DNA of 64,000 nucleotides from Eubacterium sp. (GTDB lineage Bacteria > Bacillota > Clostridia > Peptostreptococcales > Anaerovoracaceae), in assembly GCA_034180045.1 (NCBI GenBank), contig JAXFOY010000019.1, forward strand, positions 6,944-70,943, in the 5' to 3' direction. The notes under the pieces were generated by a model. That model was not told where the DNA came from, did no database searches, and saw only the letters and a program-made list of their open reading frames with translations. Below, piece after piece: positions 53,635 through 64,000 of the stretch. The position numbers and the translations under genes were made by a program. The number at the start of each line of letters is the position of its first letter. Position 1 is the first letter of the stretch.

Positions 53635-54867
53635 ATGAAGAGAAGAGTTGTTATAACAGGTATGGGAGCAGTCTCTCCGATAGGAATAGGCAGCCAAAAT
53701 ATGTGGGAAAACGCAAAAAAAGGTAAGTTGGGCATAGATTTTATAACTCAGTTTGATACGAAAAATACAAAAGTTAAAATTGCCGGTGAGGTAAAGGATT
53801 TTGAGCCTACAAACATCATGGATAAGATGGAAGCGAGAAGAACCGCGAGATTTACGCAGTTTGCTCTATATGCGGCAGATGAAGCCTTCAGGCAGAGCGG
53901 ACTTGATATGTCAAAGGAAGATTCCCTAAGATTCGGTGTAAATGTTGCCAGCGGCATAGGCGGGCTTCCGGTAATTCAAAAAGAGTGTGCGAGAGGTGAA
54001 AAGCACGGTTATGACAGAGTTTCACCCCTATTTGTACCGTCGAGTATTATCAATATGGCAGCAGGTATGGTGGCAATCAGATTGGGATTCAAAGGCAGCT
54101 GCACCTGCGTTGTTACAGCCTGCGCCTCGGCATCGGATTCCATAGGTGCGGCATTTCACTACATAAGGGACGGATATGCCGACGTGATGGCATGCGGTGG
54201 AGCGGAGGGCTGTATTTCAGAGCTCGGAATTGGCGGCTTCACATCTATGAGAGCACTTTCGGGTTCAGATGAGCCTTCTCGTGCTTCAATACCGTTTGAC
54301 AAAGAACGCAGCGGTTTTGTGATGGGAGAGGGAAGCGGGATTTTGATTTTGGAGGAGTATGAGCATGCTGTAAATAGAGGCGCAAAAATACTTGGTGAGA
54401 TAGCAGGATACGGCTCAAGCTGTGATGCAAATCACATGACTGCACCTCTTGAAGATGGGACAGGCGCGGCAAATTGTATGCTGCTTGCTCTGAAAGATGC
54501 AGGAATAGAGCCTTTTGAAATCGGATATATCAACGCACACGGTACAGGTACGCCTCTAAATGACGCCGGAGAAACAAAGGCGGTAAAACTTGCTTTCAAA
54601 GACCATAGCTATAATTTATTAATGTCGTCGACAAAGTCAATGACAGGCCATCTTCTAGGCGCAAGCGGAGCGATAGAAGCGATAATGACTGTCAAATCTT
54701 TAGAAAGTCAATTTGCTCCTCCTACAATAGGATATAAGATCGCTGATGAAGATTGTGATTTGGAAATATGTGCGGGTCATGGCCGTGAGTACAAAAGCAA
54801 GTATGCAATGTCGAATTCTCTCGGTTTCGGCGGTCATAATGCGTCTTTGATTTTTAAGTCGGTTTAG
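53635..54867 (+). CDS. fabF: 3-oxoacyl-ACP synthase II
   Basis: TACAS, NAHGTGT, GHLLGA, NSLGFGGHN. Confidence 0.96.
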   Translation: MKRRVVITGMGAVSPIGIGSQNMWENAKKGKLGIDFITQFDTKNTKVKIAGEVKDFEPTNIMDKMEARRTARFTQFALYAADEAFRQSGLDMSKEDSLRFGVNVASGIGGLPVIQKECARGEKHGYDRVSPLFVPSSIINMAAGMVAIRLGFKGSCTCVVTACASASDSIGAAFHYIRDGYADVMACGGAEGCISELGIGGFTSMRALSGSDEPSRASIPFDKERSGFVMGEGSGILILEEYEHAVNRGAKILGEIAGYGSSCDANHMTAPLEDGTGAANCMLLALKDAGIEPFEIGYINAHGTGTPLNDAGETKAVKLAFKDHSYNLLMSSTKSMTGHLLGASGAIEAIMTVKSLESQFAPPTIGYKIADEDCDLEICAGHGREYKSKYAMSNSLGFGGHNASLIFKSV

Positions 54868-54888
54868 TGTAGAATATAGGAGAAAAAA

Positions 54889-55314
54889 ATGGTTCTAAAT
54901 TCAGAACAAATTAAAGAAATACTTCCCCATAGATATCCGTTTCTTCTAGTTGATAAGATTACGGAGATGGAACCCGGGAAGTTTGCCAAGGGTATTAAAT
55001 GCGTGTCGCAAAATGAAATGTATTTTCTCGGACATTTTCCGCAGAAAGCGGTTATGCCGGGCGTACTTATTCTCGAAGCTTTGGCACAGACCGGGGCTTG
55101 TGCGCTGCTTTGCACAGAGGAAAACAGAGGAAAGCTTGCTTTTTTTGGCGGAGTGAAAAATTGCCGCTTCAAAAGACAGGTAGTTCCGGGTGATTTATTG
55201 GAACTTGAGTGTGAGGTCATCAAGAGTCGCGGTAATGTCGGTTTCGGTAAAGTGATAGCGAGTGTAGATGGAGAGGTGGCTTGCAGTGGAGAGATTTCTT
55301 TTGCAATAGGATGA
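54889..55314 (+). CDS. fabZ: 3-hydroxyacyl-ACP dehydratase
   Basis: [15 protein letters not shown]...MPGVL..EALAQ. Confidence 0.96.
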
Positions 55315-55327
55315 TAGGAGAACATGG

Positions 55328-55801
55328 ATGCTGAAAGAAAATTTTTCTCGTGTTTACGACAAGTTTAAGTTACTGTTATATGGAAAGGCCTTCAATGATA
55401 ATTCAGAAGATGCTCTTTCTGCTTTTGAGGTGCTTTGCATGGAGATAATCATGGCTCTGAGAGCGCCTACAGTTAATGAATTTGCAGACGCGGCGCGCAT
55501 GTCATCACCTAATGCGACTTATAGAATAAATCGCTTGATAGAAAAGGGATATATCAAAAAAAAGCGCGGGAAAACGGATCGCAGAGAATTCTATCTTGAG
55601 GCTACAGAAAAATACTCTAAGTCATACGGTGTTGTATATGATTATATAGAACTTTTATGCAATCGCATTACCGAGCATTTTCCAAAAGAGGATGTCGAAA
55701 AATTCGATGAAGTTTTGGGAACTGTAGCTAATGAACTTACATTTGAGGTTGAAAGCTTTCATGATGTGGCATCAAAAAACGGTAATCTCAAAGCAAAATA
55801 A
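55328..55801 (+). CDS. MarR-family regulator closing the fab cluster
   Basis: Winged helix ...SPNATYRINRLIEKGYI......DRRE. Confidence 0.85.
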   Translation: MLKENFSRVYDKFKLLLYGKAFNDNSEDALSAFEVLCMEIIMALRAPTVNEFADAARMSSPNATYRINRLIEKGYIKKKRGKTDRREFYLEATEKYSKSYGVVYDYIELLCNRITEHFPKEDVEKFDEVLGTVANELTFEVESFHDVASKNGNLKAK

Positions 55802-55832
55802 TCACAAGTGAGAAATTATAAATAGAAATTTC

Positions 55833-55881
55833 AAGTGCACCACAAAAGCCGGATGTTGAACTGACTTTTGGAGGTGTACTT
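55833..55881. repeat. Degenerate inverted repeat resembling paired IS3/IS150 ends
   Basis: AAGTGCACCACAAAAGCCGG ... CTGACTTTTGGAGGTGTACTT imperfect arms. Confidence 0.45.
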
Positions 55882-55914
55882 TTTTGCGGAAAAACTGCCC
55901 GCACTTACAAAAGA

Positions 55915-55939
55915 AAACCACCCGCAAAGCGGGTGGTTT
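55915..55939. terminator. Bidirectional terminator hairpin
   Basis: AAACCACCCGC-aaa-GCGGGTGGTTT between convergent genes. Confidence 0.75.
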
Positions 55940-55951
55940 GGATTAATGAAG

Positions 55952-57427
55952 CTATTTAACCGAAAGTGCAACATCTTCAATAGGTGTGCTGCTTGCTTTT
56001 GAATATACCTTTACGATATAGAATACAAATACTATTGCAGCAAATGAAATACCTATGATATTTGAAATTGTTGAATCGATTCTGAAGCCTTCCTTTGCCT
56101 GTAGAATATAGGCAACTGTTACAGATGTCATATATGTAGCGGGAATTGAAGCAATCCAGCTTCCGACTTTGCTTCTATAGCGGCAGAGATAAACTGCTGC
56201 TGCCCAAAGAGCCATCATAGCCAGAGTTTGGTTTGACCATGAGAAATATCTCCAGATGACTGTGTAATCAAGCTTAGAAATACCGTAACCAAGCAAAAGC
56301 AGAGGTGCCGTCATGATGAGTCTCTTCTTGGTATCCTTTTGGTCAACCTTGAACCAGTCCGCAATTGTAAGTCTTGCGGAACGGAATGCCGTGTCACCTG
56401 ATGTAATAGGACATGCTATAACACCGACCATGGCAAGTATGCTTCCCACTCCGCCGAGAAGAACCTTGGACATCTCATAAACGGTGTTTGAATTTCCGCC
56501 CTTCATTGCGAGCAGAGCTTGCATACCTGTGCCGATACCATCTTTGTTGTAATAGAATGCGACACCGGCAGCTGCCCAAATTAGTGCAATTATTCCTTCT
56601 GCAACCATCGCTCCATAGAAAATTCTACGACCTTCTTTTTCTTTTTTCATACATCTAGCCATCATAGGTGACTGCGTTGCATGGAAGCCTGAGATAGCTC
56701 CGCAAGCTACGGTGATGAACATCAGAGGCCAGATTGGGAGCTTATCCTTTGCAGGATACATATTTTCGAAGTGGTCCCATATCTCAAGCATAGGTCTTTC
56801 GCCGGAGTTATAGATTGTTGCAGCACCGATGCCGACAGCCATGATGATTAGCGCAAGACCGAACAAAGGATAAATCTTACCTATAATTTTGTCAATCGGA
56901 AGAAGTGTAGCAAGGAAGTAGTAAACAAGAATTACTATAGTCCAGAACTGTACACCCAAAGCGCTTGGTGTCAAAAGAGCGATGAGCTGGGCAGGGCCTA
57001 CCATGAAGACAACACCGACCATTACGAGCAGTACTACTGAGAAAATTCTCATGATAAGTGCCATTACAGGGCCAAGATATTTACCGACTATCTCCGAGAT
57101 GGAAGCTCCGTTGTTTCTCTCTGAAAGCATTCCTGATAGGTAGTCATGTACACCACCTGCCAAAATAGTACCGAATACAATCCATAGATATACGACAGGT
57201 CCCCACATCGCACCCGAGATAGCTCCGAATATCGGACCGAGTCCCGCTATATTCAGCAGCTGGATAAGAAATGCACGACCTGTTGGCATTGGCACAAAGT
57301 CGATACCGTCCTCGTTTGCATAAGCGGCTGTTTGACGATCGTCAGGGCCGACAAGTCTTTCAACAACCTTTCCGTAGGTGAAATAGCCTGCAATTAGCAA
57401 TATAACACCCATAAAAAATGAAATCAT
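55952..57427 (-). CDS. cstA: Carbon starvation protein A family transporter
   Basis: IAGLGPIFG, GGVHDY, ACGAISGFHATQSP, ITSGDTAFRSAR, WRYF.W.NQ. Confidence 0.95.
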   Translation of the reverse strand: MISFFMGVILLIAGYFTYGKVVERLVGPDDRQTAAYANEDGIDFVPMPTGRAFLIQLLNIAGLGPIFGAISGAMWGPVVYLWIVFGTILAGGVHDYLSGMLSERNNGASISEIVGKYLGPVMALIMRIFSVVLLVMVGVVFMVGPAQLIALLTPSALGVQFWTIVILVYYFLATLLPIDKIIGKIYPLFGLALIIMAVGIGAATIYNSGERPMLEIWDHFENMYPAKDKLPIWPLMFITVACGAISGFHATQSPMMARCMKKEKEGRRIFYGAMVAEGIIALIWAAAGVAFYYNKDGIGTGMQALLAMKGGNSNTVYEMSKVLLGGVGSILAMVGVIACPITSGDTAFRSARLTIADWFKVDQKDTKKRLIMTAPLLLLGYGISKLDYTVIWRYFSWSNQTLAMMALWAAAVYLCRYRSKVGSWIASIPATYMTSVTVAYILQAKEGFRIDSTISNIIGISFAAIVFVFYIVKVYSKASSTPIEDVALSVK

Positions 57428-57791
57428 AAATTCCCTCCTTTTCTATTTTAATCAAATTAAAAATTAAAATATTCTAATATAATTATAAAGCCTAAACATA
57501 TTTTTTCAATTATGACATATGATATTGGAAATCCGATTTATCATTAAATATATTAGAAAAATTCATCGGAATTTCACTGATATATGGTGAATGTGAATAT
57601 CTTGTGTGAATGTGAAACGTCGGGCATTTACATTTAGTCAAATCGAAAGATATTACAAATCATAAAAGAAAAAAGTTATGGTATAATGAGAAAAACTCAT
57701 TTTATTACTACCCGAAGAGGTATTAATGAATCAGGAAAGTGATATTTTTGTTCATATAATAATCACAAAGAAAAAAATGAATCGGAGAAAC

Positions 57792-59093
57792 ATGTACAAA
57801 ACTGAAAAAAAGTCCTTCTACGACATAATTGTCATAGGAGGAGGTGCCGGCGGACTTATGGCGGCAGTAACAGCGGCAGCAAACGGAGCGAAGACGCTTT
57901 TGCTCGAAAAAAATGAAGTTCTTGGGAAAAAACTTTCGCTTACAGGCGGAGGCCGTTGTAACTTGACAAACTCGGCATCAAGAGCGGAACTTATGGAAAA
58001 CATACCTATAAATAATAAATTCCTATATAGCAGTCTTGCGCTATTTGATAATGAATCAATTATGAATTTTTTTATAGCAAATGGAGTTGATCTTAAATGT
58101 GAAGATGGCGGCAGGGTGTTTCCAGCTTCAGAAACATCGCTTGCGGTTATTGAACTGTTTATAAAAAAACTGAAACAGCATGGGGTAAGCGTGAAGACAA
58201 AGCAAACTGTTACGGAGGTACTGCCGGAAAATGGGGGGCTTTGCTGTGTAAAAACCGAAGGAGAGGAAATTTATTATGCAGCAAAAGTGATTATTGCCTG
58301 TGGAGGTAAATCATTTCCAAATACAGGCTCTACAGGGGATGGGTATGTTTTGTTATCAAACCTCGGGCATAAAATTAATCCGTTATATGCGGCGGAAGTT
58401 CCGATAAAATGTGCAGATATTCCATTCGATTCGCATGAGCTGATGGGACTTTCATTAAGCGATGCAGCGCTTAGTGTTTACAATGGCAAGAACAGGAAAA
58501 TTGTGACTCACAGGGGTGAATTGGTATTTACGCACTTTGGAATTTCAGGACCTATAGCGCTCAGATGCTCCGGATTTGTCAATAAAGTAAAGCAAGTGGA
58601 ATCTGCAAAATTTGTCGCTCTCAGTCTCGATTTATCACCTGATAAATCAAAGGCGGAAATTTTAAGCGAATGGATGATATGGACAAAGCAAAATCCCGAA
58701 AAAGAAATCAAGTCTTTGCTGAGGAATTTTGTTCCCGACAGATTTGCAAAAGTCATACTGAAAATATCGGATAAGGCTGAGAATTCAAGAGTCAAACAGC
58801 TAAACCCGCTTGATTTTGAGAAAATGGCGGATTACATTAAAGATTTTAAGTTGAAAGCGAGCGGAACCTTTCCCATTGAGCGGGCGTTTATAACGGCAGG
58901 CGGGGTTTCAACAAAGGAGATTAATCCCAAGACCATGGAATCCAAGCTGATACCGGGAATTTACATTTGCGGTGAGCTTTTGGATGTAAGCGGATATACG
59001 GGCGGCTACAATCTTACCATCGCATTTTCGACAGGATATACTGCCGGATTTTCCGCAGCAGGCACGCAGACAGAAAGGCTGACAGATGTATAG
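57792..59093 (+). CDS. HI0933/YhiN-family flavoprotein
   Basis: GGGAGGL, KLSLTGGGRCN, GRVFP, GSTGDGY, FTHFGISGP, TAGGV, GELLDV.GYTGGYNL. Confidence 0.93.
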   Translation: MYKTEKKSFYDIIVIGGGAGGLMAAVTAAANGAKTLLLEKNEVLGKKLSLTGGGRCNLTNSASRAELMENIPINNKFLYSSLALFDNESIMNFFIANGVDLKCEDGGRVFPASETSLAVIELFIKKLKQHGVSVKTKQTVTEVLPENGGLCCVKTEGEEIYYAAKVIIACGGKSFPNTGSTGDGYVLLSNLGHKINPLYAAEVPIKCADIPFDSHELMGLSLSDAALSVYNGKNRKIVTHRGELVFTHFGISGPIALRCSGFVNKVKQVESAKFVALSLDLSPDKSKAEILSEWMIWTKQNPEKEIKSLLRNFVPDRFAKVILKISDKAENSRVKQLNPLDFEKMADYIKDFKLKASGTFPIERAFITAGGVSTKEINPKTMESKLIPGIYICGELLDVSGYTGGYNLTIAFSTGYTAGFSAAGTQTERLTDV

Positions 59094-60663
59094 AATTAGT
59101 CAAATAAAATTGAACCTGGATGAATCAAAAGAACTGTTGCCGCAAAAAATAAAAAAGAAAATCGGTGACAAAACCGTTGATATTGTGAACTATAAAATCG
59201 TCAGAGAGTCAATCGATGCGAGAAACAAAATGCAAATAAAACTGGTGTATACGGTTGATTTTGATGTTCAGAGAAAAGCAGCGGGAAAGAGGAGTGAGAC
59301 AAAACCTGTACTTAAACTCAATCCTAAGATAAACCTTACAGAGGCTCCGGATATGAATTACAGGCAAGTTTCATCCGGTAATCTTGAGATGAAGCATAGA
59401 CCCGTAATTGCGGGATTCGGTCCTTGCGGTATGTTTTGTGCCCTTATTTTGGCGCAGCAAGGATATAAACCTATAGTTATAGAGCGAGGCAAGGCGGTTA
59501 ACGATAGAGTGGGTGATGTGAAGCGCTTTTGGAGTGAAGGGATTCTGGACACTGAGTCGAATGTGCAGTTCGGCGAAGGCGGTGCGGGGACCTTTTCGGA
59601 CGGAAAATTGACAACGGGAATCAAGGATACAAGAATACATAAAGTATTGAACGAATTTGTGGCGGCAGGAGCACCCGAAGAAATTTTGTATAAGCAAAAA
59701 CCACACATAGGAACAGATATGCTCAGAATTGTCGTGACGAATATACGCAAGCAAATTCAGTCTCTTGGCGGTGAGGTGAGATTCAGCAATAAGTTGGTGG
59801 GAATAGACTCATCGGACGGAATTTTGAAAGGTGTAAAAATAGAAGATGTTTTGAGCGGTGAAAGTTACAAGCTGGATACGGATATACTAGTGCTCGCCAT
59901 AGGTCACAGCGCAAGGGACACATTTAGATATGCGAAGAGCATAGGCATAGAAATGTCGCCGAAGCCCTTTTCTATAGGAGTGAGAATAGAGCATCCCCAG
60001 GAACTTATCGACACAGCACAGTATGGAGAAACCAAAGGACTGCCTCCGGCAGAGTATAAGCTTTCTCATCACTGCAAAAATGGCAGAGGAGTATATACTT
60101 TTTGCATGTGTCCGGGCGGTGAGGTGATTATTGCTTCTTCACAACAAGGCGGAGTTGTTACAAATGGAATGAGTAACCACAAAAGAGATAGCGGAGTGGC
60201 TAACAGCGGACTTCTTGTAGATGTGAGAATTTCCGATTTTGAAAGCTCAGATGTACTTGCAGGCGTGGAGTTTCAGGAAAAATATGAGAAGCTTGCGTAT
60301 ATAAATAATGGAAAAAGATTTGGACTGCCCACGACGACTTGGGGGGATTTCAGAGACGGAAAACCCGAGGCTCAAGCCGTTATAAAATCGCTGCCGGATT
60401 TTGCTGTGGAATCTATTCGAGAAGCCATGCCTTTTTTAGGAAAAAAGCTGAATGGATTCGATGACGATGAAGTCGTTATGAAAGCTGTAGAAACCAGAAG
60501 TTCATCTCCCGTAAGATTCTTTAGAGATGAAAACCTTCAGGGGAACATAAAAGGCTTTTTCCCGGCAGGTGAAGGGGCAGGATATGCAGGCGGTATAACC
60601 AGTGCGGCTTGTGACGGGATAAAGGTTGCGGAAAAGATAATTTTAGAGTTTAGTCCTAAATGA
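59086..60663 (+). CDS. Uncharacterised FAD-dependent dehydrogenase
   Basis: GFGPCG, ERG, QFGEGGAGTFSDGKL, HIGTD, FCMCPGG, GEGAGYAGGITSAA.DG. Confidence 0.88.
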   Translation: MYRISQIKLNLDESKELLPQKIKKKIGDKTVDIVNYKIVRESIDARNKMQIKLVYTVDFDVQRKAAGKRSETKPVLKLNPKINLTEAPDMNYRQVSSGNLEMKHRPVIAGFGPCGMFCALILAQQGYKPIVIERGKAVNDRVGDVKRFWSEGILDTESNVQFGEGGAGTFSDGKLTTGIKDTRIHKVLNEFVAAGAPEEILYKQKPHIGTDMLRIVVTNIRKQIQSLGGEVRFSNKLVGIDSSDGILKGVKIEDVLSGESYKLDTDILVLAIGHSARDTFRYAKSIGIEMSPKPFSIGVRIEHPQELIDTAQYGETKGLPPAEYKLSHHCKNGRGVYTFCMCPGGEVIIASSQQGGVVTNGMSNHKRDSGVANSGLLVDVRISDFESSDVLAGVEFQEKYEKLAYINNGKRFGLPTTTWGDFRDGKPEAQAVIKSLPDFAVESIREAMPFLGKKLNGFDDDEVVMKAVETRSSSPVRFFRDENLQGNIKGFFPAGEGAGYAGGITSAACDGIKVAEKIILEFSPK

Positions 60664-60780
60664 CAGCTTTGGCTCCAATTTTATTTTCACATGACTTTTC
60701 AAAGCTTCAGAAATCAGCTTTACATTAAATTGAACGGACATAGACCATCTCTTTTGAAGAACAAATGCGATAAGACTGAA

Positions 60781-60855
60781 AACTGTATATATAGAAAATA
60801 GCAAAAATGAAATATACAGTTAAAATAAAATATAAACATAGCGGAAACTGTATAT
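60781..60855. promoter_or_regulatory. Three 10-bp boxes (direct, inverted, direct)
   Basis: AACTGTATAT 60781-60790, ATATACAGTT 60812-60821, AACTGTATAT 60846-60855. Confidence 0.7.
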
Positions 60856-60950
60856 ATTAAAAAATGATATATTGCATATTTAATAAAATCAAAAAAATGA
60901 TAAAATATCCGATAGTGATATATTTGATTGCAGCAAAGGAGAGTATTTCA

Positions 60951-61496
60951 GTGGAAAAAAATAACAAAATTACAACTCAAGAGCTGGTAATTACAGCAGT
61001 ATTTATCGCTATGGTATATGTAGCTACATGGCTGATTAATATTAGACTTCCTCTAGTGGGCAGCGGGGGGCTTATTCATCTCGGCAATGTGCCTCTATTT
61101 ATCGGTGCTATGCTGTTCGGTAAGAGAACCGGTGCGATTTCGGGAGCTGTGGGAATGGGTCTCTTTGACCTTATGAGCGGCTGGACGGTATGGGCGCCTT
61201 TCACTTTCGTAATAGTAGGCTTAATGGGGTATGTCGTAGGATATTTCGCAGAGAAAAAACCTATTAAAAACGCAGTTTTGAACGATGTTACAGCTATGGT
61301 TTCGGCATTGATAATAAAGCTTGTCGGATACTATTTTGCGGAGGTCATCTTGTTGGGAAACTGGCTCGCACCATTCGGCTCTATGCCGGGTAATATACTG
61401 CAAGTCGGATTTGCGGCAATCGTAGCCGTTGCAGCAGCTCCGGTGCTACGCATCGCATTAAGAAATATTACAGGAAATACGGTATGTTCAAGATAA
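60951..61496 (+). CDS. ECF transporter S component (PdxU2/HmpT-like, predicted vitamin B6 vitamer)
   Basis: GGLIHLGN, GMGLFDL.SGW..WAPFT, IPGN-like end; GTG start with AAGGAG RBS. Confidence 0.8.
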   Translation: MEKNNKITTQELVITAVFIAMVYVATWLINIRLPLVGSGGLIHLGNVPLFIGAMLFGKRTGAISGAVGMGLFDLMSGWTVWAPFTFVIVGLMGYVVGYFAEKKPIKNAVLNDVTAMVSALIIKLVGYYFAEVILLGNWLAPFGSMPGNILQVGFAAIVAVAAAPVLRIALRNITGNTVCSR

Positions 61497-62611
61497 TGAC
61501 AGCAGGGCCTACTCAGGTCAGAGAAAATGTAAGATTAGAAAGAAGCAAAGTTTTTACAAATCCGGATTTGGACCCTGATTTTTTTGATTTTTATAAAGAA
61601 ACTTGTGAGCTTCTTTCAAAGACGATGAACACGCAGATGAGAGCCTTTATAATGGGCGGTGAAGGCATACTGGGCCTTGAGGCGGCATGTGCTTCGCTCA
61701 CAGAGGAGGGGGACCGCGTCCTCGTAATTGATAACGGCATTTTCGGTAAAGGTTTTGAAGGCTTTGTTACTATGTATGGTGGTGAAGCTACAGTTTTAAG
61801 CAGTGACTATCGTAACCCCGTTAAACTTGATGATTTACGAGCTTTTTTATCAAAGGACAGCGATTTCAAATACGCCACAGTTGTTCACTGTGACACACCA
61901 AGCGGTGTTATGAATGATGTAGAAGCCATTAGCCGACTTCTTGATGAATTCGGTATAATGACGGTTTGTGACTCTGTTGCGGGGATGTTTGGTGAACCGC
62001 TGAATTTGAGCAAATCAAAGATAGACATTCTTTGCGGAGGATCACAAAAGGCTCTATCGGCACCTCCGGGGCTGACTATGGTCTGGGTAAGCGACAGAGC
62101 CTTTGAGGCTATGAAGTCACGTAAGTCGGCAATCAGAGCTTTTTATGCGAATATTCTTTTGATGGAAGACTACTATAAGAATCAGTGGTTCCCGTACACT
62201 ATGCCGATTAGCGATATTATGGGACTTAGAGTGGCAATTGAAAACTATCTTGGTGATTTGAATTTCCAAGAAAGACATAGCAAACTTGCAAAAGCGGTTC
62301 GCAAGACTGTGACAAAGGCAGGGCTCGGCCTGTATTTAGAAAGCGGATTTTCGAACAACGTTACTGTAATCGAGGTTCCTCAAGGCATTACAGATGAAGA
62401 ACTCCTTAACGAAATAAGAGAGGATTTCGGCATTCTAATAAGCGGATGTTTCGATGTGCTTAAAGGTAAGGTTGTCAGAATCGGTCATATGGGTGAAAAC
62501 GCAAATGTGGAAGATATTGCCGCGACTTTAGATGCTATGCAGAAAGTTTTGCTAAGGCATGGAATTGAATTGAAATGCAATATGATGAATGAATTTTTAT
62601 TATCTTGCTAA
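61484..62611 (+). CDS. Class V aminotransferase, pyridoxamine-pyruvate aminotransferase-like
   Basis: TAGP, GGEGILGLEAA, HCDTPSG, DSV, SQK(189)AL.APPGL, FPYT, RIGHMG. Confidence 0.85.
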   Translation: MFKIMTAGPTQVRENVRLERSKVFTNPDLDPDFFDFYKETCELLSKTMNTQMRAFIMGGEGILGLEAACASLTEEGDRVLVIDNGIFGKGFEGFVTMYGGEATVLSSDYRNPVKLDDLRAFLSKDSDFKYATVVHCDTPSGVMNDVEAISRLLDEFGIMTVCDSVAGMFGEPLNLSKSKIDILCGGSQKALSAPPGLTMVWVSDRAFEAMKSRKSAIRAFYANILLMEDYYKNQWFPYTMPISDIMGLRVAIENYLGDLNFQERHSKLAKAVRKTVTKAGLGLYLESGFSNNVTVIEVPQGITDEELLNEIREDFGILISGCFDVLKGKVVRIGHMGENANVEDIAATLDAMQKVLLRHGIELKCNMMNEFLLSC

Positions 62612-62656
62612 TGGGCATAGATTCAAGTAAAATACTCTTATAAATCTTTTAATTAA

Positions 62657-63136
62657 GTGAGAGTAATGATGGTAAAGAACTATTTACATTTGTTTTTTAT
62701 GTCTATGCTCCCTATGGCAGAGCTGAGAGTTGCCGTACCTATTTCTCAAGCGCTTAACTTGCCTATTGTCGAATCTTTTATCGTATGCATGATAGGTAAT
62801 ATGGTACCTGTGCCGTTCATATATCTGTTTGCAAGGAAGTTCTTGGTTTGGGGGAGTAAAAGACCTTATATTTGGAAGATGTGCAGATTTTTCCTAAGTA
62901 AAGGAGAAAAGGCAGGACACAAATTGACCGAGAAAAGCGGAAAAGGAGTTTTTATCGGACTCTTGCTTTTTGTCGGCATCCCAATTCCGGGAACAGGTGC
63001 GTGGACAGGAACCTTGGCTGCAAGTATCCTGGATTTCGGCTTCAAGAAGACCGTACTGGCGGTTACGCTGGGAGTTGCTGTTGCGGGCAGTATTATGATG
63101 GTCGCAAGTATAGTAGGAATAAATATATTTAATTGA
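62657..63136 (+). CDS. Small multidrug export-like membrane protein (COG2426-like)
   Basis: SMLP..ELR..P, FVGIPIPGTGAWTG.LAA. Confidence 0.85.
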   Translation: MRVMMVKNYLHLFFMSMLPMAELRVAVPISQALNLPIVESFIVCMIGNMVPVPFIYLFARKFLVWGSKRPYIWKMCRFFLSKGEKAGHKLTEKSGKGVFIGLLLFVGIPIPGTGAWTGTLAASILDFGFKKTVLAVTLGVAVAGSIMMVASIVGINIFN

Positions 63137-63180
63137 CAAGGCTGCTTCGTGCGGCCTTTTTGATATTTAGGAGAAAGCAA

Positions 63181-63798
63181 ATGAAGAAAATTATCTTGGA
63201 CGGCTGCGAGTATAGTATCGAGGAATGTCGAAACTATCTGATATTAGAGGAACTATTCACAGCTTCAGGTCTTGAATTTATGAGAAAAAGACTTGAAGCC
63301 GGTTCAAATTCTAAGCAAAAAACAAAGATGAGCACCTTGTGTTATATAGAGCGTGATGATAAGTATCTGATGTTACATAGGGTTTTCAAAGAAAACGATG
63401 TCAATAAAGACAAATGGATAGGTGTCGGCGGGCATTTTGAATTTGCGGAAAGCCCTGAGGAATGTCTTTGTCGTGAAGTTTTCGAGGAAACCGGATATGT
63501 GATAAGCGATTATAAATTCAGAGGATTGATTACTTTTGTTTACGGCGAAAAAGGAAAAGAAATAGTAGAATATATGCATCTTTTTACAGCGAGAAATGTA
63601 AAGGGGGAGCATAAAAACTGCGATGAAGGCATTTTAGAATGGATACCAAAGAAAGATATTTTTGAACTTGATTTGTGGGAGGGGGATAGGATATTTTTAA
63701 GGCTTTTAGATGAAAGAGATGATTTCTTTTCTCTTAAACTCGTGTATAATGACAAGGATGAACTCATCGAAAGCAAGCTGGATGGAGAGTATATATGA
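63181..63798 (+). CDS. NUDIX hydrolase (MutT-like)
   Basis: Nudix box GGHFEFAESPEECLCREVFEETG; LCYIE, CDEG.LEW, LWEGD. Confidence 0.9.
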   Translation: MKKIILDGCEYSIEECRNYLILEELFTASGLEFMRKRLEAGSNSKQKTKMSTLCYIERDDKYLMLHRVFKENDVNKDKWIGVGGHFEFAESPEECLCREVFEETGYVISDYKFRGLITFVYGEKGKEIVEYMHLFTARNVKGEHKNCDEGILEWIPKKDIFELDLWEGDRIFLRLLDERDDFFSLKLVYNDKDELIESKLDGEYI

Positions 63799-64000
63799 AA
63801 ATAAAGATAAAGGAAAGGGATATTTCCGATGTGCTGAATATTCCTAAAGAAGCTCATATTAAGCCGAAGCGGCAGAGTTTTCTTATGCGTTATTTGCTGA
63901 AGCTCCTATCAGAAAAAGAACTTAAGGAAGTAAACTTTAAGTGTGAAAAAGAAAATATGGACTCTATTTCAGCAGACGAACCTGTATTATTTCTGATGAA
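63795..64000 (+). CDS. 5' part of a probable lysophospholipid/PlsC-type acyltransferase, truncated by the window end
   Basis: Open frame from ATG 63795 to the window end (MKIKIKERD...EPVLFLMN), ending just where an NH acyltransferase motif would be expected. Confidence 0.45.
   Translation, partial: MKIKIKERDISDVLNIPKEAHIKPKRQSFLMRYLLKLLSEKELKEVNFKCEKENMDSISADEPVLFLM

Follow-up and report, generated by a model that had tools for sequence, protein, structure and literature searches.

A candidate two-gene cassette for oxygen-independent vitamin B6 salvage in Clostridia, pairing an ECF S component with a pyridoxamine–pyruvate aminotransferase-like enzyme

Introduction

Pyridoxamine–pyruvate aminotransferase (PPAT) of Mesorhizobium loti reportedly holds a glutamate (Glu68) in its phosphate site that excludes phosphate and so admits unphosphorylated B6 vitamers, with Arg336 and Arg345 said, in the same 2008 structure paper, to bind the substrate carboxylate. 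To our knowledge, B6 degradation is its only proven physiological role. In enzymes of the alanine–glyoxylate aminotransferase (AGT) type, a Ser/Thr loop together with Tyr/Thr side chains holds the phosphate of pyridoxal 5'-phosphate (PLP). The HmpT family of energy-coupling factor (ECF) transporter S components was first predicted to carry hydroxymethylpyrimidine. Lys197 of PPAT forms the Schiff base and Asp171 contacts the ring nitrogen (PMC9309667). The HmpT substrate has been reported, from mass spectrometry and simulations, as pyridoxamine (PMC4860826). Here we describe a locus in which genes for relatives of these two proteins, an S component (S) and an aminotransferase (AT), overlap. It lies in a 64,000-nucleotide stretch (the window) of Eubacterium sp. 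contig JAXFOY010000019.1 (assembly GCA_034180045.1, family Anaerovoracaceae). We consider it probable, from comparison with these relatives, that the two genes form a vitamin B6 salvage cassette controlled by a PdxR-type regulator, converting pyridoxamine to pyridoxal without oxygen.

Reconstructions of B6 salvage take PdxK-only organisms as limited to pyridoxal (PMC9997740), and "B6 auxotrophs missing PdxK" have been noted as a gap in what is known of gut genomes, with more than a hundred gut B6 auxotrophs lacking a known kinase (PMC6593275). Neither of these recent surveys (PMC9997740, PMC6593275) includes an enzyme of the kind described here. A full-text literature search, incomplete in its coverage, returned no publication that connects PPAT-like enzymes with ECF S components or with the salvage of B6 by anaerobes.

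Results

Nearest relatives and active site of the aminotransferase

AT belongs to Pfam PF00266 (aminotransferase class V; 65.2 bits, gathering threshold 21.5), and public annotations label its relatives "alanine--glyoxylate aminotransferase family". PPAT was its top match by three methods. (i) Among NCBIfam models, AT matched NF046070 (pyridoxamine--pyruvate transaminase, EC 2.6.1.30) best, at 238.2 bits, with the next family at 157. (ii) A PDB sequence search was led by M. loti PPAT (2z9u; 173.6 bits, E 6e-50), the next structure scoring 129.6. These two score gaps argue against a chance correspondence. (iii) Foldseek, run on an AlphaFold (AF2) model of AT (pLDDT 90.2), ranked 2z9u_A first at a TM (template modelling) score of 0.94, with a narrow lead over PucG and AGT structures; the model matches class V structures at TM 0.9 or above. 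The original prediction, made from the DNA letters and their translations, had proposed a likeness to PPAT, and by sequence, profile and fold PPAT is indeed the nearest relative.

The open reading frames and residues named in that prediction were read as given: GGE60GILGLEAA (in the context ...FIMGGE60GILGLEAA...), D163 and SQK189. In a HMMER alignment, the E60 region, D163 and SQK189 lie opposite ILHGEPVLGLEAA, D and NK of chain 2z9u, whose chain index plus one gives the published PPAT numbering. The proposed eight-residue offset to PPAT therefore holds, with E68, D171 and K197 of PPAT falling on E60, D163 and K189 of AT. The same alignment pairs Y95, T146 and R345 of PPAT with F87, T138 and R332, and R336 with F323.

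The altered phosphate pocket extends beyond the glutamate: canonical enzymes have Ser/Thr, Thr/His and Tyr/Thr at the positions taken by E60, I62 and F236 in AT. No substitution of E60 occurs among 38 AT orthologs, and relatives as distant as 36% identity still carry it. From a search of 1.84 billion representative proteins, 112 usable full-length matches were aligned with PPAT and two canonical enzymes. The motif G-E-[G/A]-[I/M/L/V] occupies positions 59-62 in all of the top 25 full-length representatives, the most distant at 35% identity, and most of them have Phe236 and Tyr238. Across the alignment, the 38 Glu60 sequences, PPAT among them, mostly combine a hydrophobic residue at 62 with Phe/Tyr at 236/238, against [S/T]-G-[T/S/H/R] and Tyr or Thr at 236 in the 72 canonical sequences. 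In a maximum-likelihood tree, a single branch (support 0.889) parts these 72 from the 38 Glu-type sequences and two exceptions, and the Glu-type group includes both PPAT and the window AT. Alignment and tree together indicate that the missing phosphate pocket characterises a whole lineage, PPAT included, and does not stem from a one-off substitution. The predicted replacement of the phosphate-loop Ser/Thr by Glu is thus part of a wider pattern otherwise seen in PPAT; as far as the aligned residues tell, AT shares this loss with PPAT, the single characterised enzyme whose substrates are free pyridoxamine and pyridoxal.

Conservation of the pair

A one-genome-per-species scan found at least 579 genomes with an AT relative, and the best 80 (59-99% identity) were taken for linkage. 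In 75 of these 80 species, an S ortholog (54-100% identity) lies directly upstream of AT on the same strand; hosts of the cassette include Emergencia, Eubacterium minutum, Anaerovorax, Hominibacterium, Clostridium aminobutyricum, Lachnospiraceae and Oscillospiraceae. Within the window's order, AT is present in 66 of 201 sampled genomes. Twenty more distant genomes of the order (AT at 36-56% identity) all keep GE[G/A], D163, K189 and R332, and 13 of them have an adjacent S gene, in some cases downstream of AT rather than upstream. S–AT adjacency, in either order, persists down to 43% identity. Linkage that outlasts rearrangement argues for functional coupling of the two proteins, the coupling on which the original prediction was built.

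Around the pair, no further neighbour is conserved: no pdxK, regulator or degradation gene, nor any other, recurs in the 80 loci (maximum 3-5 of 130-143 proteins), and B6 degradation genes adjoin it in none of 100 loci. A tblastn search with the genome's own ThiD across all loci found no linked kinase.

A different arrangement was seen at L088 and L099 (C and L numbers are our handles for contigs and loci; Table 1), where a PPAT-like gene without an adjacent S gene has a Cof-type haloacid dehalogenase (HAD) phosphatase directly upstream on the same strand. The phosphatase belongs to the subfamily of the Escherichia coli PLP phosphatase YbhA but scores below its cut-off; it may hint at dephosphorylation of pyridoxamine 5'-phosphate (PMP) or PLP before transamination.

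The S component and its energizing module

S is a member of PF07155 (ECF riboflavin-type S components; 117.5 bits, E 8e-34), and its sole PDB relative is L. brevis HmpT/PdxU2 (4hzu_S, E 1e-17), as expected for the PdxU2/HmpT-like protein that had been proposed. Against the NCBIfam S-component models it stays under all cut-offs, the best score being that for TIGR04002 (70 vs 120 bits). The HmpT pocket comprises E41, W76, H84, Q87, Y120, S136, N140 and Q143 (PMC4860826), of which five are identical in S (W81, Y127, S144, N148, Q151). All eight pocket positions of S (N46, W81, V89, M92, Y127, S144, N148, Q151) are strongly conserved in 86 cassette-linked orthologs. With a fixed pocket of its own, S forms a distinct subfamily, one whose ligand is not readable from sequence. 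An EcfA1-EcfA2-EcfT module is encoded on another contig, C18, where the two ATPase genes match TIGR04520 (378 bits, cut-off 315) and TIGR04521 (386 bits, cut-off 330) and the T component is CbiQ-type.

Vitamin B6 metabolism of the host genomes

The host is an anaerobe of the gut type with a small genome of 1.67 Mb (99.55% complete). This genome encodes no PdxS, PdxJ or PdxH, so B6 must be salvaged; the PdxH-free setting assumed in the original prediction was therefore confirmed. Among 50 other cassette genomes, PdxS is absent in 43, PdxJ is absent in all 50 and PdxH scores above cut-off in none.

An upstream motif shared with a PdxR-type regulator

Upstream of S lie three operator-like ACTGTAT boxes of alternating orientation, the third of which belongs to a block of fixed spacing (Table 1). 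A MocR-type motif architecture of three boxes that alternate in direction around a conserved TGT core has been published (PMC5320631), and the layout here fits it. Across 74 species loci, the hexamer ACTGTA/TACAGT is concentrated 100-200 nucleotides (nt) before the S start, with 66 matches in that bin vs about 3 per bin elsewhere. The spacing of the ACTGTA-N19 block is identical in the window, L004, L005, L006, L008 and L020, and the block is a perfect pattern match within its own genome. In an order-wide pattern search, the window's own family gave 43 matches vs 7 for a reversed control. With one mismatch allowed, many chance matches arose outside the family, about as frequent as in the control, and only matches with an A-rich spacer upstream of genes were kept. 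Of 20 motif sites fetched, 15 precede PF07155 S genes, comprising cassette orthologs and paralogs (31-39% identity). Some of the paralogs are solitary and others are accompanied by an Amidohydro_2 protein; those of one sister genus stand with a kinase that passes the pyridoxamine-kinase model NF005491 (262 bits, cut-off 231).

In seven motif-bearing genomes, a regulator of about 460 amino acids with GntR and aminotransferase-fold domains is encoded divergently from the motif, and in the sister genus this regulator and the motif precede the S-paralog/pyridoxamine-kinase operon. The window genome's ortholog (50-62% identity) lies on C18. It passes the NCBI PdxR model NF052282 (446.9 bits, cut-off 320), and its top PDB match is Bacillus clausii PdxR (7pq9; 293.7 bits, vs 235.6 for GabR). 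It is divergent from ecfA1-ecfA2-ecfT, and the intergenic sequence AAACTGTATACTAAAATATTTGACTAATTGTAACTTT is the same motif as that at the pair: ACTGTA-N19-TTG[CT]A[TA] occurs both on C18 and in the window, and in 6 relatives it adjoins orthologous regulators. Since the motif is common to the regulator/ecf region, the S-kinase operon and the pair, we infer that the pair falls within a PdxR-type regulon. It appears to belong to a B6 regulon of this regulator together with the ECF module and, in relatives, an S + kinase operon; the motif strengthens the pair's link to B6 more than it fixes the reaction of AT.

Several further observations concern the regulator and its sites. In the PdxR-type regulators of the window's family (the C18 protein and L173-L179), GSFSSTLF stands where B. 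clausii PdxR and GabR have FSK, such that the PLP Schiff-base Lys is Ser in all eight orthologs; in the more distant L076 regulator it is Arg. Without this Lys, the proteins may detect a vitamer through non-covalent binding, or respond to a compound other than PLP. In L005, L006, L008, L020 and L053, about 140-180 nt before the S gene, boxes 1 and 2 pair at the foot of a terminator-like hairpin, the inner stem of which varies between species with compensation and is followed by a T-run; this is not so in the window or L004. A terminator/antiterminator RNA switch was rejected as an explanation of the boxes, given that the window and L004 have no hairpin with T-run and that the boxes lie upstream of the promoter-like site. 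An origin as mobile-element ends was likewise rejected, no matching repeat being found downstream of AT. A degenerate copy of the motif, ATTGTA-N19-TTATATATTT, precedes an operon on C8 of the same genome, in which a second PF07155 paralog (174 amino acids; similar in L134 and L135) is fused with an Amidohydro_2/TatD-like protein (241 amino acids, no NCBIfam match). By gene content, this operon looks to be another pair of an S component and a processing enzyme.

Gene organisation and neighbourhood

The S gene starts with GTG, 10 nt after a ribosome-binding site, and overlaps the AT gene by 13 nt. The ATG of AT lies inside the S gene, and the N-terminus MxKIMTAGP is kept in orthologs, so the AT start is correct and the two genes are predicted to be transcribed and translated as a single unit. 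Comparison of 54000-64000 with Rfam, at E values up to 1, yielded no riboswitch or other relevant match, upstream of the pair included.

Directly 3' of AT, with no terminator between, lie genes for a small PF06695 membrane protein (159 amino acids) and a NUDIX hydrolase (221 amino acids). Because this arrangement is confined to the window's own genus (L003, L004), they are probably outside the S–AT unit; a terminator-like hairpin sits at their junction, just inside the start of the NUDIX reading frame. On the 5' side are two tandem flavin adenine dinucleotide (FAD) enzymes, one of the aminoacetone-oxidase/HI0933 family (455 amino acids), the other an FAD-dependent protein that ends in a PF21688 domain (525 amino acids); their adjacency to the pair is not kept in other species.

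Table 1. Coordinates of the cassette, its predicted control elements and related features (window positions unless a contig or locus is given)
Feature	Position	Strand	Sequence or basis
S gene: ECF transporter S component, 181 amino acids	60951..61496	+	PF07155; HmpT/PdxU2 relative; solitary (group II)
AT gene: class V aminotransferase fold, PPAT-like, 375 amino acids	61484..62611	+	Profile, PDB and fold matches
AT codon E60	61661-61663	+	
AT codon D163	61970-61972	+	
AT codon K189	62048-62050	+	
Three operator-like boxes, alternating orientation	60780..60863	+	AAACTGTATATAT at 60780, ATATACAGTT at 60812 (inverted), AAACTGTATATAT at 60845; predicted PdxR-type site
Block of box 3, A-tract and TTGCAT box	60847..60881	+	ACTGTA-N19-TTGCATATTT; fixed spacing; upstream of promoter-like site
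Promoter-like site (predicted)	60897..60924	+	ATGATA-16-TATATT with TG extension; consensus scan alone
Ribosome-binding site of S gene	60935-60941		AAAGGAG
Two tandem FAD enzymes	57726-60663		
PF06695 and NUDIX genes	62657-63798		
Terminator-like hairpin	63138-63158		
PdxR-type regulator	C18:48813-50204	-	NF052282
Motif copy at ecf module	C18:50221		ACTGTA-N19-TTG[CT]A[TA]
EcfA1-EcfA2-EcfT module	C18:50448-52958		TIGR04520, TIGR04521, CbiQ-type T
thiE-thiW-thiD-thiC cluster	C6 (L001 284-3633)		
S paralog + Amidohydro_2 operon	C8:19916-21162	+	PF07155
HAD phosphatase beside PPAT-like gene	L088:6168-7085	-	
HAD phosphatase beside PPAT-like gene	L099:6183-7043	-	

Discussion

A model for oxygen-independent pyridoxamine salvage

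In the model that we favour, the solitary S component would dock on the shared EcfA1-EcfA2-EcfT module and import an unphosphorylated B6 vitamer, most likely pyridoxamine. The co-translated AT would take free pyridoxamine as its substrate, rather than PLP as a bound cofactor, and would pass the amino group via a Lys189 Schiff base to a 2-oxo acid (pyruvate or another) in the manner of PPAT, releasing pyridoxal. A candidate kinase (ThiD acting in a second capacity, or some other enzyme) would then yield PLP. Such a route would dispense with the O2-dependent PdxH. The original prediction of a salvage role is thereby kept in outline through the likeness of AT to PPAT, the homology of S to HmpT, the linkage, the absence of PdxH and the PdxR-type motif; the supply of pyridoxal to PdxK, the use of pyruvate as acceptor and the ligand of S are not supported as written.

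Several points weigh against this model. AT scores far below the NF046070 equivalog cut-off (238.2 vs 600 bits), is just 31% identical to PPAT, has the S-Q-K motif of AGT rather than the P-N-K of PPAT, and carries Phe323 in place of Arg336, one of the two carboxylate ligands of PPAT, at a position variable across the family. By these measures AT would not count as a member of the PPAT equivalog and, with Arg336 absent, the amino acceptor is uncertain and pyruvate is not assured. On the transport side, three of the eight HmpT pocket residues differ in S (E41->N46, H84->V89, Q87->M92), and the HmpT ligand assignment is itself drawn from mass spectrometry and simulation (PMC4860826). PdxR regulons also take in ordinary PLP-dependent aminotransferases (PMC5320631), such that co-regulation is no proof that AT acts on a vitamer. 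PMP could in principle be converted to PLP by ordinary transaminases, so the need for AT would not be absolute. Across the order, PdxS is found in 21% of AT-positive vs 36% of AT-negative genomes (odds ratio 0.47, Fisher p 0.035, phylogeny ignored), a modest difference that lends consistent but weak support because the whole order is rich in auxotrophs.

The lack of a kinase leaves a genuine gap in the model. Neither PdxK nor PdxY could be recognised in the window genome, whose sole Phos_pyr_kin protein is a true ThiD (TIGR00097 327 bits, cut-off 205) within the thiE-thiW-thiD-thiC cluster; the only candidate kinase being a bona fide ThiD, phosphorylation of pyridoxal is left without an assigned enzyme. 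As a detector of PdxK, TIGR00687 gave no match at cut-off, and NF005491 was used instead for the 50 other cassette genomes, just 10 of which have a PRK07105-type pyridoxamine kinase. A PdxK-like kinase is detectable with TIGR00687 in just 27 of 201 genomes of the order. This gap matches that of the gut "B6 auxotrophs missing PdxK" (PMC6593275).

Alternative readings

The fold and core residues of AT (D163, S-Q-K189, R332) are common to AGT and serine–glyoxylate aminotransferase (SGAT), relatives are annotated accordingly, and PLP-dependent aminotransferases are frequent in PdxR regulons. AT could therefore be an ordinary PLP-dependent class V aminotransferase (of the Ser/Ala-glyoxylate type or acting on an imported amine), with S importing that compound or an unrelated micronutrient and the PdxR control reflecting a need for PLP. 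We regard this as unlikely: three polar phosphate ligands are replaced (E60, I62, F236), as otherwise in PPAT, which also leads all three independent searches, and the linkage to an HmpT/PdxU2-type S component is tight yet survives rearrangement. The absence of PdxK/PdxY from the window genome, and of a PRK07105-type kinase from most cassette genomes, would be accommodated more directly if the pair handled phosphorylated vitamers, S importing PMP or PLP and AT being the orphan pyridoxamine-phosphate:2-oxoglutarate transaminase (EC 2.6.1.54), which would make a kinase dispensable. A passage of PMC9309667 cites the purification, long ago, of such an activity from a Clostridium, and B6 auxotrophs missing PdxK are recognised (PMC6593275). 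The Ser/Thr/Tyr phosphate ligands are nonetheless lost in AT, with Glu60 at the place of the reportedly phosphate-excluding Glu68 of PPAT, and we judge this reading to be improbable.

Two further alternatives would take the pair away from B6 salvage altogether. The homology of S to HmpT, together with the thought that PPAT-type chemistry could extend to other aminomethyl heteroaromatics, would allow a thiamine-pyrimidine-type substrate, e.g., aminomethyl-pyrimidine. Upstream of the pair there is neither a THI riboswitch nor any other Rfam match, the genome's thi cluster has its own ThiW, and the motif is common with the PdxR-type regulator and the pyridoxamine-kinase operon, all of which make this highly unlikely. 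Least probable of all, to the point of being close to negligible, is that AT initiates the breakdown of B6, as happens in Mesorhizobium or Pseudomonas MA-1, i.e., the sole physiological role proven for PPAT as far as is generally known. The known pathway requires O2, the hosts are small-genome anaerobes, mostly B6 auxotrophs, and the pair has neither conserved neighbours nor degradation genes beside it in 100 loci.

Implications

With the salvage model thus preferred, the cassette unites an enzyme and a transporter of known types in a new proposed physiological role and regulon, and the regulatory link of the pair to B6 via the upstream motif is new here. If the model is correct, (i) pyridoxamine, which is prominent among the vitamers of diet and host, would gain an entry route that needs no oxygen and has so far been missing, (ii) the only known PPAT-type enzyme would gain an anabolic counterpart, (iii) re-annotation would be needed, across at least 579 species-level genomes, for proteins now labelled "alanine-glyoxylate aminotransferase family", and (iv) vitamin cross-feeding among gut communities could be predicted more sharply. 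The predicted PdxR-type operator offers a direct experimental handle.

More speculatively, the E-type class V proteins may represent a large family, found mostly in anaerobes, whose members transaminate vitamers without a cofactor and which, with dedicated S components and a Lys-less PdxR variant that may sense an unphosphorylated or amine vitamer, would constitute an O2-independent form of B6 salvage. We hold this only tentatively. Were it true, it would explain the life of many gut "B6 auxotrophs without PdxH or PdxK", and would imply either a yet-undiscovered pyridoxal kinase or a kinase-independent route.

Comparison with known systems

M. loti PPAT (EC 2.6.1.30, PDB 2Z9U) and AT have the same class V fold (TM 0.94) and share the Schiff-base Lys, the Asp that faces ring N1, an aromatic stacking residue, the Thr that faces O3', a C-terminal Arg and, above all, the Glu that replaces the phosphate-loop Ser, and both belong to the E-type lineage. 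AT departs from PPAT in overall identity (31%), profile score (238 vs 600 bits), the absence of Arg336 and S-Q-K in place of P-N-K. The settings differ as well: PPAT serves aerobic B6 degradation, whereas AT occurs in anaerobic Clostridia with a paired uptake protein and a predicted PdxR-type operator. AGT and SGAT resemble AT in fold, in the S-Q-K motif and in their Asp and Arg residues, but they keep the Ser/Thr-Gly-Thr/His phosphate loop and the partner-subunit Tyr/Thr, both of which AT lacks.

For the transporter, HmpT/PdxU2 (4HZU chain S) and the window S are both solitary PF07155 S components on a shared EcfAA'T module and have the W/Y/S/N/Q pocket residues in common; N, V and M stand in S for E41, H84 and Q87 and are fixed in 86 orthologs. 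The streptococcal and other Firmicutes PdxR-pdxKU loci resemble the present system in their PdxR-type regulator, their S component of the same Pfam family and their divergent multi-box operators, a make-up that the sister genus (regulator, S, pyridoxamine kinase) matches exactly. The window pair differs from them in that S is partnered with a PPAT-like transaminase rather than a kinase and the regulator lies elsewhere, beside ecfA1A2T; this regulator is in turn unlike both PdxR and GabR in having Ser at the position of the PLP Schiff-base Lys.

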